From NCBI GenBank assembly GCA_964477895.1, contig CAYZFQ010000003.1:122243-186242 (forward strand): 64,000 nt of DNA. Direction: 5' to 3'. Below, one piece after another: positions 6,737 to 13,029 of this stretch. The position numbers and the translations under genes were made by a program. Every line of letters starts with the position of its first letter. Positions within the stretch are counted from its first letter, which is position 1. Source of the DNA: an uncultured Bacteriovoracaceae bacterium (GTDB lineage: Bacteria; Bdellovibrionota; UBA2428). The notes under the pieces were generated by a model. The model saw nothing but the letters and a program-made list of their open reading frames with translations, did no database searches and was not told the DNA's origin.

Positions 6737-8317
6737 CTAAGTCAGTCCCTCAATAAGAGCAAGCCCTGCTCGCACTCCAAAGCCTTGCTCATCCGTTCCC
6801 ACCAATCCTAAACCTCCAGGATGCACATGAGGCGAAAGATCAATATGCAACCACGGAGTCTCAGCACCAATAAAATGCGAGAGAAAAGTGGCGGCATAAC
6901 TCATGTCGGCCCCGGGGCCTGGGGCAATCTGCCGAGTGTCGGCCACTTCACTTTTTAGGCCCTTCCAAAAATCACCTCCACTGGGCAAAGACAGAAGTCT
7001 TTCGCCGCTGTTCTCAGCGAGGTCCATGGCTTTTTGAGAAAATTTCAAGGTGTGAGAAAAAACTCCGGCACGTTTTTTATCCGTTGCACGCAAACAAGAT
7101 CCCGTAAGAGTAGCAAAGTCGATGCATAGATCAGGGGCTTCTCGTCGTGCCAAGGCCAGGGTGTCGGCTAATACCATCCGCCCTTCGGCATCGGTATTAT
7201 TCACTTCAATGGTGGTCCCATCCAGTGCGGTCACCACGTCGTTAGGACGAAAGGCCGTGGGGGAAATAAGATTTTCAGCGATGGCCATATAGCCATGGAC
7301 CTCAATCGGAAGTTTTAACTGCGCCATCAGTCCCATCAGCGCTAGCACCACGGCAGACCCCGTCATGTCTTTGTGCATGCCTTCCATGTAATCGCCCGTT
7401 TTAATGTTGTAGCCGCCCGTATCAAAGCACAGCCCCTTGCCGACCAATGCAATTTTCTTCTTAGCCCGGGGCGCCTTATACACAAGGTGCGCAATTCCTG
7501 CGTCGTGGTTTTCCTCAGAGCGTGCCACCGCTAAAAAAGAACCAGCTCCCAAGGCTTTTAACTTTTTTTGGTCAATAAACTCAAATTTAAGCTTATTGTC
7601 TTTGCTAAATTTTTCGATCTCTTTGCGATAGCTAGAGGGGTTTAGGTAATTCCCCGGAGTCTCCGCTAAAGTGCGAACGAGGTTCGTCCCCTGGGCGACT
7701 TGCAGAAATTTCTCAAAAATCACCTTTAATTTTGAGGAAGAAATTTTTGCACAGATTTCAATCTTAGTGCTTGATGAATCTTTATCTGCTTTTTCTTTGT
7801 TTGATGCTTTCGTGCGAAGTCCGTATTCTGGCCCCTTCCACTCTACTAGTTCAAAGAGGGAAGCCATACCTTCAAAGGCTTTTTCACCCATCGCGCCCTC
7901 TAAAGCGCAGAGCACCAACTGAGGCTTTGTTTTAAAGGCTAAGCGTAGAGCTTCAAAGAGTTCGTGAGTCGAGATTTTCCCATTTACCAGTAATAGGTTC
8001 ACGGCCCCACCCTCGGTAAAGGGCAAATTCACCGAGGAATACTGAGACGCGGGACCAAAAGCCTTAGCGGGCTGAGGCTTAAGTTTTGATTCCAGGCCCA
8101 CGCCAAAAACGCCAAAGGCCTTGTGCGATTTCAAATCCTTGACCTTTTCCTTAGGCCATACGACAAGACTCACTTTTTTAGAATCGAAAGATTTGAACGC
8201 GGAAAAAGGTTCAAAAGAGTACGTTTTTTCAAAGAATTTCAATGTAGCTGCCATAGACTCCAGCACAGTCGATGCACCGCCACGCTTCAAGCGAATCGAG
8301 CCTTTATATGAATTCAA
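6737..8317 (-). CDS. pepA: Leucyl aminopeptidase, M17 family
   Basis: M17 signatures (NTDAEGRMVLADTLA, GKGLCFDTGGYNIKTG). The true start may be the internal Met at 8254 (MAATLKFF...). Confidence 0.85.
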   Translation of the reverse strand: MNSYKGSIRLKRGGASTVLESMAATLKFFEKTYSFEPFSAFKSFDSKKVSLVVWPKEKVKDLKSHKAFGVFGVGLESKLKPQPAKAFGPASQYSSVNLPFTEGGAVNLLLVNGKISTHELFEALRLAFKTKPQLVLCALEGAMGEKAFEGMASLFELVEWKGPEYGLRTKASNKEKADKDSSSTKIEICAKISSSKLKVIFEKFLQVAQGTNLVRTLAETPGNYLNPSSYRKEIEKFSKDNKLKFEFIDQKKLKALGAGSFLAVARSEENHDAGIAHLVYKAPRAKKKIALVGKGLCFDTGGYNIKTGDYMEGMHKDMTGSAVVLALMGLMAQLKLPIEVHGYMAIAENLISPTAFRPNDVVTALDGTTIEVNNTDAEGRMVLADTLALARREAPDLCIDFATLTGSCLRATDKKRAGVFSHTLKFSQKAMDLAENSGERLLSLPSGGDFWKGLKSEVADTRQIAPGPGADMSYAATFLSHFIGAETPWLHIDLSPHVHPGGLGLVGTDEQGFGVRAGLALIEGLT

Positions 8318-8387
8318 TTAGACACGTTGCAGAAAGGCTTTAACTGAATCACATCGTTATAACTCTAACATCAATGGCGATGGGGGG

Positions 8388-8410
8388 AACTGTGCGCCGG
8401 GAAGTGGATC
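8388..8410. repeat. IS left terminal inverted repeat
   Basis: Reverse complement of 9625-9647 (21/21 perfect core, 22/23 overall). Confidence 0.7.
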
Positions 8411-8422
8411 ATGGAGAGGCAT

Positions 8423-9589
8423 TTAAATTGCCTGCCATGAGTAGGTGGGTTGTGGCAGAACACTTCGGTTATAGGGCACCTGTCCTTTTATAATCATGGA
8501 CCATTCTGCCGGAATGGGTACCTGAACTTCGGTTCTAGGTTCCGAGAAAAATTCATGGAAAGCCAGAACATGCGTCTCAATGCTTAAGCTTTGTGCAGGA
8601 CTCTGTAGATGGGCAAGGGGACGTCTTTTATGTCTTTTTGTGAACTGCGGGCGCATGTAATTTTTATCTATTAAAAAAAGCAGAAACTTCTTAGCCATTG
8701 CCGTATGAGTTTTGGAAAAGGAAATAGTTTCACGAGAAAAGGCCCCTACCTTTTTACGTATTAGCAGATCGGCGTGGTTCACGGGAAAAAGTATATTCTT
8801 AAAGCATCGATAGGCTTTCGCTGAGATCGTTATATGGTCAATGCAGCTTCCCTTAAGGTCATATTGAATGGAGCGTCGGTACTGAAAGTGTTCATCACTG
8901 ATCAAAGCCAGATTCTCCCCAGGCTTTTTTCGCTTAAGCATGCGCGATATTAAGGCGGTGGTGGCCTGGCGAATGGCATCTTTGGGATAAGAACCTACCG
9001 ATGCGACTAATTCTTTATTTTTGAGCTTTTGCCGTTCCGACATGCGGCCCTTGCGGTTCATCGGTGCGAGATTAAAGTCGTAGATAAAAAGCGAGGAAGT
9101 ACCAATCATTTGATTGATATAATTAGGGTCGTATTGCGTGCCGGCAAAGTTTTCTAGTCCGTCGTAGCAAATATCTTCATTCACAGTGCCAAGTTCATTT
9201 AAACGTTCCTGGTGCAATTTAAAGGCCCAATCAGCCATGCGGTTGAGCCGACCTCGCACACAGTGTTCGCTCACGCCAAAGACAAAGGCCAAGTCCCGGT
9301 TGGTAGCGCCAAGGGTGAAGGCCTTAAATATTCGAGCTGACAGAGTTTTATCGGGAAGTTTAAATCGGTAGTGAAACTTAAAAGCACGGGCCGAAAACTT
9401 TTTTCGACATTGAAAGCATTTAAATCGGGGGACTTGAGTTCCGTTTTTAACTTTGTACAAACCCGCCTTTCCCCACCACTTACGAGGACGAAGATCTAAG
9501 CTTTTCTTTAAATGATTAAAGCACTTAGCGTTGGTACAAAATGGTGGAGTGAAATTTATGAATTCAAACTTTTCTTCCATGCAAGGCAT
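8423..9589 (-). CDS. Transposase with N-terminal C2C2 zinc ribbon (IS1595-family-like DDE transposase)
   Basis: 388 aa. N-terminal C-x4-C ... C-x2-C (FCTNAKCF ... RFKCFQCRKKFSARAF) resembles the Zn_Tnp_IS1595 ribbon. Enclosed by TIRs. GAGGG SD-like motif upstream of Met1/Met4. Confidence 0.65.
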   Translation of the reverse strand: MPCMEEKFEFINFTPPFCTNAKCFNHLKKSLDLRPRKWWGKAGLYKVKNGTQVPRFKCFQCRKKFSARAFKFHYRFKLPDKTLSARIFKAFTLGATNRDLAFVFGVSEHCVRGRLNRMADWAFKLHQERLNELGTVNEDICYDGLENFAGTQYDPNYINQMIGTSSLFIYDFNLAPMNRKGRMSERQKLKNKELVASVGSYPKDAIRQATTALISRMLKRKKPGENLALISDEHFQYRRSIQYDLKGSCIDHITISAKAYRCFKNILFPVNHADLLIRKKVGAFSRETISFSKTHTAMAKKFLLFLIDKNYMRPQFTKRHKRRPLAHLQSPAQSLSIETHVLAFHEFFSEPRTEVQVPIPAEWSMIIKGQVPYNRSVLPQPTYSWQAI

Positions 9590-9624
9590 GCCCTCGCAAT
9601 TTCCGGGCCTACTTCACTTCCACA

Positions 9625-9647
9625 GGTCCACTTCCCGGCGCACAGTT
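9625..9647. repeat. IS right terminal inverted repeat
   Basis: Reverse complement of 8388-8410. Confidence 0.7.
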
Positions 9648-9650
9648 AAA

Positions 9651-10421
9651 TTAACGGCGCGTCCGAATCATGGCCGAAGCATATTCCCGGTTCAATCGAG
9701 CAATATTTTCCTGCTTAATTTCCTTGGGGCAGGCTGCAGAACAAGCCTGGGTATTGGTGCAGTTGCCAAAGCCTTCTTTGTCCATTTGCTCTACCATGTT
9801 TAAGACCCGGTCTTCTTTTTCGATGGCACCTTGTGGGAGCAAAGCCAAATGCGAAACCTTGGCAGCCACAAAAAGCATGGCCGAAGCATTTTTACAGGCT
9901 GCGACACAAGCTCCACAGCCGATGCAAGAAGCTGCTGCAAAGCTAAGATCGGCATTTTCTTTAGAAATAGGGAGGTTGTTGGCATCTTGGGCATTTCCGG
10001 TACTCACCGAAATGAAACCTCCGGCTTGAACCAAACGATCCAGAGCCGAGCGATCAGTAGACAAATCTTTTTGAACTGGAAAGGCTTTCGCTCGGAAGGG
10101 TTCTACGACCAAAGTTTCGCCTGACTTAAAGCGGCGCATATGGAGCTGGCAGGTAGCAGTTCCCGTATCGGGCCCATGAGGCGCTCCATTGATAACCAGT
10201 GAGCATGAACCGCAAATCCCTTCGCGGCAATCATGGTCAAAGGCCACGGGCTCTTCATTTTTCTTAATAAGATCTTGGTTAAGAACATCCAGCATTTCCA
10301 AAAAGGACATGTCGGGACTCACTCCTTTGAGGTCATAATCTTTAAGAGCCCCCTTGCTTTGGGGATTTTTTTGGCGCCAAATCTTTAGTTTTAAGTTCAG
10401 TCCCGAGGAATCATGGCTCAT
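9651..10421 (-). CDS. sdhB: Succinate dehydrogenase/fumarate reductase iron-sulfur subunit
   Basis: 2Fe-2S, 4Fe-4S and 3Fe-4S cysteine clusters ([10 protein letters not shown]..., [23 protein letters not shown]). Confidence 0.85.
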
Positions 10422-10442
10422 AGTTTTTCCTTTTCCAAAACC

Positions 10443-12356
10443 CTATTTGTAACTTCTGGTGGAAAGTTTCACGTACTCAAAGTCCAAGTTTTCTTTATGA
10501 AGTGCTGGAGCTTTATTTTCGCCCTTCCATTCCCATGCGGCCACGTAACAAAAGTTCTCGTCGTCGCGTTTGGCTTCATTATCTTCTGTTTGGCTTTCTT
10601 CCCTAAAGTGACCGCCGCAGGATTCCGTTCGGTGAAGAGCATCCGTGCACATCAGCTCTCCTAATTCCAAGAAGTCGGCCACGCGACCTGCCTTTTCGAG
10701 TTCTTGGTTCATGTCGTTTGAGTCGCCTGGAATTTTTACGTCATTCCAGAATTCTTCTCGAATTTTAGGGATTTCTTTAAGCGCAAGCTTAAGCCCTGCC
10801 TCATTGCGACCCATTCCACAATAATCCCACATGAGTTTGCCCAGTTTGCGGTGAATTTCGTCCACTGTTTGAGAGCCATTAATGTCGAGCATCTTGCGCG
10901 AGCGCAGCTGCACGTCGTTCATGGCCTCAGAAAATGCCACATGGTCGGTGGTCACCTTGCCGAGTTTGTGAGACGCGAAGTAATGGCCCAAAGTGTAAGG
11001 AATCACAAAGTATCCATCGGCCAAGCCCTGCATAAGGGCCGAGGCTCCTAAGCGGTTAGCTCCGTGGTCTGAGAAGTTCGCCTCACCTAAAACGTGAAGA
11101 CCTGGGATCGTAGACATCAAATGATAATCCACCCAGAGTCCGCCCATCGTGTAGTGAACCGCAGGATAAATACGCATGGGAACTATGTAAGGGTCTTCGC
11201 CTGTGATTTTGTCGTACATGGCAAAAAGGTTGCCATAGCGCTCTTCAATTTTTTCTTTACTGTCTCGCTGAATGGCATCTCGGAAATCCAAGTAGACCGA
11301 CAAACCCGTAGCTCCCACACCTTGGCCATTGTCGCAGGCAAATTTGGCTTGTCGTGAGCTCACATCTCGAGGAGCGAGATTACCGAAGCTGGGATAAATT
11401 CGCTCTAAGTAGTAGTCCCGCTCACTGTCTGGAATTTCCCGAGGATCTCGTCTGTCTCCCTTGGCCTTGGGCACCCAAACTCGGCCATCATTTCGCAGAG
11501 ACTCCGACATCAAAGTGAGTTTGGATTGGTGATCGCCCGAAACAGGAATGCAAGTGGGGTGAATTTGCGTAAAGCAAGGATTGCCAAAGTAAGCGCCTTT
11601 TTTATGAGCCCGCCAAACGGCTGTGGCATTCGAAGCTTTGGCATTGGTCGAAAGATAAAATACGTTGCCATAACCTCCCGTGCACAAAAGAACGGCATCG
11701 GCGGCGTATTTTTCGAGCTCACCTGTGATGAGGTTGCGCACAATAATGCCGCGGGCCTGGCCTTCCACCAAAACCAATTCTAACATTTCCCGCCGCGGGT
11801 AGTATTTAATTTTTCCACTCGCCACTTCTTTCATCATGGCTTGGTAGGCCCCGATAAGCAGCTGCTGTCCAGTTTGGCCGGCCGCATAGAAGGTGCGGGA
11901 AACTTGAGCCCCCCCAAAGGAGCGGTTCGAAAGGAGACCTCCGTATTCACGTGCAAAGGGCACGCCCTGAGCGACACATTGGTCGATGATATTTACAGAC
12001 ACCTCGGCTAAGCGATGAACATTGGCTTCGCGCGCTCGGTAATCTCCACCTTTGATGGTGTCGTAGAAAAGTCGGTGAACAGAGTCACCGTCGTTTTGGT
12101 AATTTTTTGCCGCATTGATGCCCCCTTGGGCCGCAATAGAGTGAGCCCGCCTGGCACTATCCGAGTAACAAAAAGAAAGAACGTTGTAGCCCATCTCAGC
12201 TAGGCTCGCGGCAGCGGAAGCACCGGCCAGCCCCGTCCCGACGATGGCCACCGTAAATTTACGACGGTTCGTGGGATTTATCAGCTTCATGTCGAACTTA
12301 TGATTTTCCCATTTACCCTCTAACGGACCCTTGGGAACCTTTGAATCAAGTGCCAT
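10443..12356 (-). CDS. sdhA: Succinate dehydrogenase/fumarate reductase flavoprotein subunit
   Basis: 637 aa. FAD-binding N-terminus ([21 protein letters not shown]). Conserved SDH/FRD flavoprotein motifs (HYTMGG, catalytic His/Arg region). Confidence 0.9.
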
Positions 12357-12360
12357 CTTT

Positions 12361-13029
12361 TTAATTCCTTAAAAAATAAACATAGAGTGGTTGAGAGAGA
12401 AAGCCTGCCGCCACAATCACAGCGTAAACTGTGCCGATGGCGCGAATGCAAGGCGTGTAACGAGGATGGTTAAATCCTAATGATTGAAAGATCGACGAAA
12501 ATCCGTGGCTTAAGTGAAATCCTAAAAGTACTAAAGACACCACATACCAGAGCACGTAGCCAGTGCTCTGGAAGACCTCCACAATGAGGCGATGAAGGTC
12601 TCGCATCTCAACCCCGTTGTAGCTCACAGTGTAGAGAGTGCCGTATTTAAAAGTGGCAATGTGCAAGATCACAAAAGCTAAAATAAGACTTCCAGTATAA
12701 GCCATGGTGCGCGACGAAAAAGAGGCCCGCTTTTCACCTTTGGGTAGGACAGCGTAACCCAGGGGACGAGCCCGCTTGTTTTCAATAGACAATTTTATAC
12801 CGAGAGCGGCATGGAGGAGCAGACTCAGCACCAGTACCGCCTCAGCCAAAGGCAATATGGGATTTGTAATAATGGCATGCCCATATTTGTTATAGGCTTC
12901 GGCACTCACAAAAATCAGCATATTGCCTGCCATGTGACTTAAGACGAAGCCTGACCAAACGAGGCCAGTGATGCCCATCAGAAATTTTTTACCGATGGAC
13001 CGATGAAGCAATCCTTTGAGACTCGACAT
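12361..13029 (-). CDS. sdhC: Succinate dehydrogenase/fumarate reductase cytochrome b subunit (single-subunit, 5-TM type B anchor)
   Basis: 222 aa with five predicted TM helices and conserved His residues. Sits immediately upstream of sdhA. There is no separate sdhD. Confidence 0.7.

Follow-up and report, generated by a model that had tools for sequence, protein, structure and literature searches.

A 1260-bp unit bracketed by inverted repeats lies between the sdhCAB genes and pepA of an uncultured Bacteriovoracaceae bacterium (contig CAYZFQ010000003.1; all positions given below are those of the 64-kb stretch of this contig that was analysed, hereafter called the window). Its location raises the questions of what the unit is, to which family it belongs and how it came to lie within a few bases of a stop codon. 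A preliminary description had proposed that the unit is a complete, possibly new insertion sequence (IS) with a zinc-ribbon transposase of the IS1595 family. Our analysis makes it very probable that the unit is a genuine and intact IS that is probably mobile, and that it is a member of a large family, centred on Bdellovibrionota, that is not covered by current model libraries, is distantly related to IS1 rather than being part of IS1595, and is found inserted next to host stop codons.

The element, its transposase and its relatives

The unit spans positions 8388–9647 and its two 21-nt arms are 100% complementary (21/21), with AACTGTGCGCCGGGAAGTGGA at 8388–8408 and the reverse complement at 9627–9647. 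This arm motif yields just two matches in the window when up to three mismatches are permitted, and none in 100 shuffled sequences, which ruled out a chance inverted repeat. The sole open reading frame (ORF) that spans the interval is uninterrupted, starting 38 nt inside one repeat and stopping 15 nt inside the other. The initial claim of perfect 21-bp terminal inverted repeats bounding 1260 bp, with one ORF for 388 amino acids, is confirmed. This ORF has two in-frame ATGs, at codons 1 and 4 (window 9580–9589). The closest homologues begin at the second, as does a public gene call on identical DNA, and the protein is probably 385 rather than 388 amino acids long. A TTGCGAGGGC motif immediately upstream of the start codon is conserved among related elements of different hosts and probably serves as a ribosome-binding or regulatory site. 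No second copy or remnant of the element is present within the 64-kb window, and an Rfam search yielded nothing meaningful.

The transposase carries four N-terminal cysteines (C18-x4-C23 ... C58-x2-C61, with RFKCFQCRKKFSARAF representing aa 55–70), followed by a helix-turn-helix, a catalytic core and a C-terminal domain (Table 1). In an alignment of 39 homologues (alignment A1), residues C58, C61, D143, D232, H234, N271, D274 and R278 are invariant, C18 and C23 are kept in at least 90% of the sequences, and the motifs YDGLENFA.SQYDPN, SDEHFQYRR and FPVNHADLLIR...RETISFSKTH are strongly conserved. The window protein keeps every one of the invariant residues. A confident structure model (pLDDT 91, pTM 0.90) has the strand and helix order of an RNase H fold, in which strand 1 carries D143, D232 follows strand 4, and the next helix carries N271, D274 and R278. 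This model predicts a DDE-type (RNase H-fold) transposase with a D-D-N/D arrangement rather than D-D-E, for which N271 and D274 are alternative candidates for the third catalytic residue. The protein had also been described as about 90 amino acids longer than typical IS1595 transposases, which holds true because it carries a conserved C-terminal domain of ~90–95 amino acids.

Library searches with the window protein returned few matches. No Pfam model, including Zn_Tnp_IS1595 and DDE_Tnp_IS1595, matched at E ≤ 10, a tblastn search of a plasmid collection gave no match, a PDB sequence search gave nothing useful, and a viral structure library returned generic RNase H-fold matches only. The sole transposase match in NCBIfam was to the IS1 model (17.4 bits, E 0.003, aa 47–152), which falls below the equivalog cutoff of 100 bits for this model. 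When hhalign was used with E. coli IS1 InsA, the zinc ribbon and helix-turn-helix were aligned with a probability of 94% (E 8.6e-8). The zinc-ribbon C-x4-C...C-x2-C transposase of the preliminary description is supported. The corresponding match to E. coli IS1 InsB is weak (probability 28%, E 6e-4). This alignment is in register, such that D232 coincides with the second D of IS1, N271 with its E and R278 with its R, and the sequence SFSK is common to both proteins. A profile search of PDB sequences matched the helix-turn-helix and zinc-finger parts only.

Similar searches with relatives gave a comparable picture. Among the 39 close relatives, ten have weak DDE_Tnp_IS1 matches (best E 0.006), three match Zn_ribbon_InsA, and most match helix-turn-helix models of the LuxR or sigma-70-region-4 type. 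In a more distant clade of 40 relatives (alignment A2), the NCBIfam IS1 model matches 35 proteins (best E 8e-11), the ISL3 model 33, and the IS1/IS1595 N-terminal zinc-binding domain 23. The IS1-model scores of the relatives (20–40 bits) derive from the zinc ribbon and helix-turn-helix module only, and this same module is matched by ISL3 and IS256-variant models. On sequence grounds, the DNA-binding module is IS1-like and the catalytic core at best faintly related to that of IS1. Of the known families, IS1 is the only one with detectable homology, and this homology is solid for the N-terminal DNA-binding module alone.

More than 200 close homologues of ~360–400 amino acids were found, which lack a transposase Pfam domain in precomputed annotations, although one has a match to a sigma-70 region 4 helix-turn-helix. 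Many reside on contigs of 1.2–1.9 kb, a length typical of assemblies that fragment at repeated elements. When 1.8 billion representative proteins were searched with a profile, 2342 clusters (50% identity) passed a threshold of E ≤ 0.001, of which 327 also passed E ≤ 1e-30. The closest relative of the window transposase is 62% identical, and the proposal that the IS is new stands on this value. When each species was represented by a single genome, 44 loci were found to encode relatives, nearly all in metagenome-assembled genomes (MAGs) of Bdellovibrionota (Bacteriovoracaceae, Bdellovibrionales and Oligoflexia). There are several copies per genome, many of them at contig ends, and the neighbouring genes vary by locus.

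Both ends could be defined for 29 elements, and each of these is bracketed by inverted repeats with the core TGTGCG(CC), usually after TAAC or TAAT. The transposases of these elements are just 37–58% identical to the window protein, yet the ends are homologous. The family end core is TAAyTGTGCGCC, the conserved repeat core is TGTGCGCC, and the window repeat fits the consensus. Thus, the terminal repeat is not peculiar to this locus, because homologous ends recur in many contexts and in several copies per genome.

Evidence for mobility comes from nearly identical copies. A long-read Oligoflexia MAG (CAVWVI01) carries three copies that are 99.4–99.7% identical over 1366 bp at three unrelated loci, and the copies of a second set of three are 96–99.6% identical. 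The sister transposase of the window protein (62% identical; P0003, P0385 and P0386) occurs in three copies of 95% identity, each on a different large NCBI contig. Of these contigs, one is 313,486 bp long, the same length as recorded for the contig of the window transposase, and a 53%-identical member (P0006) was recovered from the same sample (SRR13208889). Several lineages of the family seem to coexist in the host genome or in its community. Mobility is established for the family, and the window copy, judged from its sequence, would share it.

Some relatives have further features of their own. At loci L005 (4470–8982) and L040 (9–4529), a related element occupies an orthologous site with flanks that are ~90% identical, an old, vertically inherited insertion that is still intact. 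An Oligoflexia locus (L010) has a 1.5-kb direct repeat of 92% identity around the element region (1–1547 and 7157–8703) and a 165-bp tandem-like repeat (1672–1836 and 1873–2037). A 16-mer pattern representing the element end gave 18 single matches in viral contigs, which were set aside because a rough estimate places this number at chance level.

Insertion next to host stop codons

Junctions between elements and host DNA (loci L001–L044 and L068–L070) were scored as adjacent to a stop codon when a long ORF (at least 100 codons) runs in the direction of the element and terminates 4–20 nt before the TGTG core. This arrangement is present at 37 of the 58 ends of two-ended elements and at 10 of the 12 ends of one-ended loci (47/70 overall), versus background frequencies in the same flanks of 1.9% when all positions are counted and 4.5% when only non-ORF positions are counted. 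At least one end is adjacent in 25 of the 29 two-ended elements. Both ends are adjacent in 12, which are wedged between convergent genes and leave almost no spacer. At 20 of the 58 ends, the host gene uses as its stop codon the TAA, TAG or TGA at the very tip of the conserved end. Just two long ORFs read deeper into an element, whereas plain gene interruption would be expected to produce two thirds.

The ends of the host proteins were compared with full-length NCBIfam models. PurH and topoisomerase VI subunit A coincide exactly with their models at the C-terminus, and AspS, HutG, HPPD and PhoH2 end within 1–4 residues of the final model position. Likewise, 26 of 28 PurH homologues end in ...RHF[KR]H. 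The window copy obeys the same rule, with the sdhB stop codon located 2–3 nt from the element end (window 9645–9653), and the spacing to host stop codons across the family is about 0–8 nt. This proximity to stop codons is the most unusual feature of the family. The flanks are compact, with ~92% of positions inside long ORFs. Selection against disruptive insertions must contribute to this pattern because the genomes are so compact, and the tightness of the spacing suggests some targeting. An empty site for the element that adjoins purH at locus L007 was not found by searching with PurH, whose closest relatives are 72% identical and have lost the downstream synteny. In one relative of this host (L072, 5065–5075), purH overlaps a convergent response-regulator gene by 11 nt.

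Direct repeats of at least 3 bp are absent from the ends of all 29 two-ended elements. The window element is flanked by ...GGGGGG on one side and AAATTAAC... on the other, and no direct repeat is common to both. The preliminary description saw no flanking duplication, which is correct for repeats of at least 3 bp, and a 2-bp TA duplication is possible. Outside the TGTG core, the base bias drops steeply, with A in 96% at position −2, A in 63% at −3 and T in 54% at −4, and TA is present at ~70% of the ends. When an element and one TA are removed, the stop codon is restored in 12 of 17 testable cases by hand count, including purH, which then reads CAT-TAA-GTG. The most economical reading of these junctions, which is not proven, is that a 2-bp TA is duplicated and that the first purine of the element would regenerate the stop codon. 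Duplications of 3 bp or more with the sequences TAA, TNA or TTAA were rejected, given that the flanking copies are in inverted and not in direct orientation.

Two alternatives to TA duplication were considered. First, the element may carry TAA at its tips and insert without duplication exactly at codon boundaries. Second, insertion may replace a target structure in the manner of IS1272, a member of the IS1182 family that, according to PMC5678879, targets inverted-repeat structures. IS1272 and the present family both lack a target duplication and both occupy sites other than random coding sequence. In contrast, their transposases are unrelated (there is no match to an IS1182 model), and no hairpin arms surround the insertions of the present family.

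Our proposed mechanism combines these features. The zinc ribbon and helix-turn-helix, which are homologous to InsA, would recognize the inverted repeats with core TGTGCGCC, and the catalytic core formed by D143, D232 and N271 or D274 (with R278) would cleave the element at its ends and join these ends to target DNA elsewhere. Family members insert ~0–8 nt from host stop codons, often lending their outermost TAA or TAG as the stop codon of the host gene, such that host proteins are left intact and no duplication of 3 bp or more is formed. The window copy would have landed in this way just after the sdhB stop codon, splitting sdhB from pepA. A more far-reaching form of this proposal describes an uncatalogued family that combines an IS1-like DNA-binding module with a D-D-N/D core, and that integrates at or a few bases past the TA of a stop codon with purine-first ends that regenerate TAA or TAG. 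We advance this far-reaching form tentatively, with less than even expectation that it is right.

Several observations weigh against the TA duplication. The stop codon is restored in only 12 of the 17 cases, and the window copy has different dinucleotides at its two junctions, TA next to sdhB and GA next to pepA. The elements at the separate loci L010, L011 and L014 are 96–99.6% identical to one another and share the left end TGATTGTGCGCC, with TG where the family usually has TA, whereas their right tips differ by 1–2 nt. In these copies, the bases at the two positions beyond the conserved purine seem to move together with the element. In other sets of copies, the shared sequence runs 5–13 nt past the TA. 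The overall interpretation of the element has to contend with the single copy in the window, for which no transposition event or empty site was found, and with the weak homology of the catalytic core to InsB, given that the IS1 hidden Markov model matches are confined to the N-terminal module. In addition, the family may already be catalogued in ISfinder, since the comparison was made to NCBIfam, Pfam, plasmid and PDB collections.

The sdhB-pepA site

The genes for SdhC, SdhA and SdhB occupy positions 9651–13029 on the minus strand, and their Pfam labels, like that of the pepA peptidase, were taken from orthologous loci. The placement of the element 3 bp after the sdhB stop codon, between sdhCAB and pepA, was correctly given in the preliminary description. 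The nearest other SdhB proteins are 77–80% identical, and in two such genomes an M17 peptidase gene begins 1 nt and 12 nt after sdhB. In the one of these genomes that is on a long contig (L047), sdhB-pepA is followed by RmuC, which is the gene order of the window. Alignment of the intergenic region with these relatives therefore reveals that sdhB and pepA are contiguous when the element is absent. The relatives have sdhB directly followed by pepA, and not a conserved host gene in the position of the element. As judged from these comparisons, the element splits a conserved and tightly packed gene pair.

It had been suggested that the insertion replaced or disrupted the terminator of the sdh operon. 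We find no support for this idea, because a gap of 1–12 nt between sdhB and pepA in relatives leaves no room for a terminator, and a promoter and terminator scan of the window found no excess over shuffles. The spacer between the element and pepA was considered as a possible IS remnant, which was rejected because its similarity to the element does not rise above that of shuffled sequences. The sdh genes, the transposase gene and pepA all lie on one strand. Therefore, read-through into pepA is possible, and the insertion may have a polar effect on this gene.

The exact SdhB protein is encoded on two further Logan contigs (L045 and L046), both of which are 100% identical to the window and carry the element. 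Both contigs end exactly at window position 9170, inside DGLENFA..QYDPN, the most conserved motif of the transposase. This shared endpoint is probably a branch in the assembly graph that arose from family paralogues present in these samples. No empty site for the window insertion was recovered by look-up of the exact SdhB protein, and neither look-up of the exact PepA protein nor a metagenome search for a pattern across the hypothetical empty junction gave any match. A metagenome scan for close relatives of the element yielded just two more distant elements. The features of the locus are collected in Table 1.

Table 1. Features of the element and its insertion site (window positions).
Feature	Position	Strand	Remarks
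pepA (M17 peptidase)	6737..8254	-	likely ATG at 8254 by orthologue alignment; full ORF 6737..8317
133-nt spacer, element to pepA start	8255..8387		no counterpart in relatives
Right inverted repeat (IRR), pepA side, past transposase stop	8388..8408	+	perfect complement of IRL; preceding base G, family usually T
Transposase ORF, 388 aa	8423..9589	-	stop 8423-8425; alternative start 9580 gives 385 aa
C-terminal domain, family-specific, aa 296-388	8426..8704	-	motifs KNYM.PQFTK, SPAQ, EW; conserved in family
RNase H-fold catalytic core, aa ~138-295	8705..9178	-	alignment and structure model
Helix-turn-helix, LuxR/GerE or sigma-70 region 4 type, aa ~83-120	9230..9343	-	library matches, model, hhalign, PDB profile search
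Four-cysteine zinc ribbon, N-terminal (C18, C23, C58, C61)	9407..9538	-	alignment and hhalign to IS1 InsA
TTGCGAGGGC motif immediately 5' of start codon	9590..9599	-	common to L068 and L069, variant in L070; read from sequences
Left inverted repeat (IRL), sdhB side, next to transposase start	9627..9647	-	gene strand is AACTGTGCGCCGGGAAGTGGA; preceding base T gives family tip TAACTGTGCGCC
TA dinucleotide, sdhB-side junction	9647..9648		candidate 2-bp target duplication; pepA-side 8387-8388 is GA
sdhB, complete gene	9651..10421	-	stop 9651-9653; 3 nt to repeat

Relationship to known families and significance

The alternative that survives best is that these elements form a very divergent, single-ORF subgroup of IS1 instead of a separate family, which we regard as possible but unlikely. 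IS1 is the only transposase model that matches the window protein, and the InsA alignment, the matches of most distant relatives to the IS1 model, the weak DDE_Tnp_IS1 matches of some close relatives and the catalytic register of the InsB alignment, including SFSK, all favour this view. Both elements are small and have terminal inverted repeats. The IS1 family as defined in ISfinder includes single-ORF members and target duplications of 0–9 bp. However, the scores of 17–40 bits are far from the cutoff of 100 bits and the matches do not extend beyond the N-terminal module of zinc ribbon and helix-turn-helix. N271 or D274 occupies the third catalytic position in place of E, and the distance from the second D to this residue is 39–42 amino acids, compared with 24 in IS1 as counted on the InsB sequence. 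Moreover, the element differs from IS1 in having a single ORF with no programmed −1 insA/insB frameshift, no 8–9-bp duplication, an additional ~95 amino acids at the C-terminus, and ends (TAAyTGTGCGCC) that are unrelated to those of IS1.

We also considered whether the element functions in the manner of IS630/Tc1-mariner, by cut-and-paste insertion into TA with a 2-bp TA duplication. The RNase H fold, the similar D-D-D spacing (88 and 41 residues) and the possible TA duplication are in line with this alternative. Nevertheless, there is no model match or sequence relationship to these transposases and the DNA-binding module is unlike theirs, and we judge this explanation to be improbable.

Still less credible is the proposal that the unit is an immobile relic or a domesticated gene that has kept its inverted repeats. 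The window has a single copy, the exact SdhB protein is known from element-carrying contigs only, and the shared insertion at L005 and L040 illustrates that long persistence can occur. In contrast, the 21-bp repeats of the window element are perfect and its invariant residues are all intact. Its relatives occur in several copies per genome, some of them 99% identical at separate sites, their neighbours vary by locus, and the three 95%-identical copies of the sister element reside on large contigs.

Finally, membership in IS1595, the assignment originally made, can be dismissed almost entirely: the protein matches no Pfam model, the NCBIfam IS1595 model (NF033547) matches 1 of the 40 distant relatives at E 0.066, the 8-bp duplication typical of IS1595 is found in 0 of 29 elements, the protein has its extra conserved domain, and the ends differ from those of the IS1595 subgroups. 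Likeness to IS1595 is confined to a single ORF whose transposase has an N-terminal zinc ribbon, the 23 distant relatives that match the IS1/IS1595 zinc-binding domain, and an invariant N271 at the position of the catalytic E of IS1, with the basic residue R278 seven positions on. A D-D-N-K signature is reported for IS1595 (Siguier, Gagnevin and Chandler 2009). The spacing of N271 and R278 is as in this signature, in a register taken from the IS1 InsB alignment.

A literature search found no description of this family or of IS1-like elements of Bdellovibrio. The family comprises thousands of 50%-identity clusters that are missed by the Pfam and NCBI models, and therefore its members are labelled as hypothetical proteins and break many Bdellovibrionota assemblies. 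Recognition of the family would improve both the annotation of these genomes and the interpretation of their assemblies. It would also add a branch, set apart by its unusual D-D-N/D core, between the zinc-ribbon transposases of the IS1, IS1595 and ISL3 types. The insertion in the window parts pepA from sdhCAB, which it normally abuts, and may affect pepA expression. More generally, the association with stop codons in the absence of an ordinary duplication provides a testable case of a transposon that chooses harmless sites or is filtered into them. If the far-reaching form of the proposed mechanism is true, then the family can colonize the extremely compact genomes of predatory bacteria, even between abutting convergent genes, while host proteins remain unaltered.

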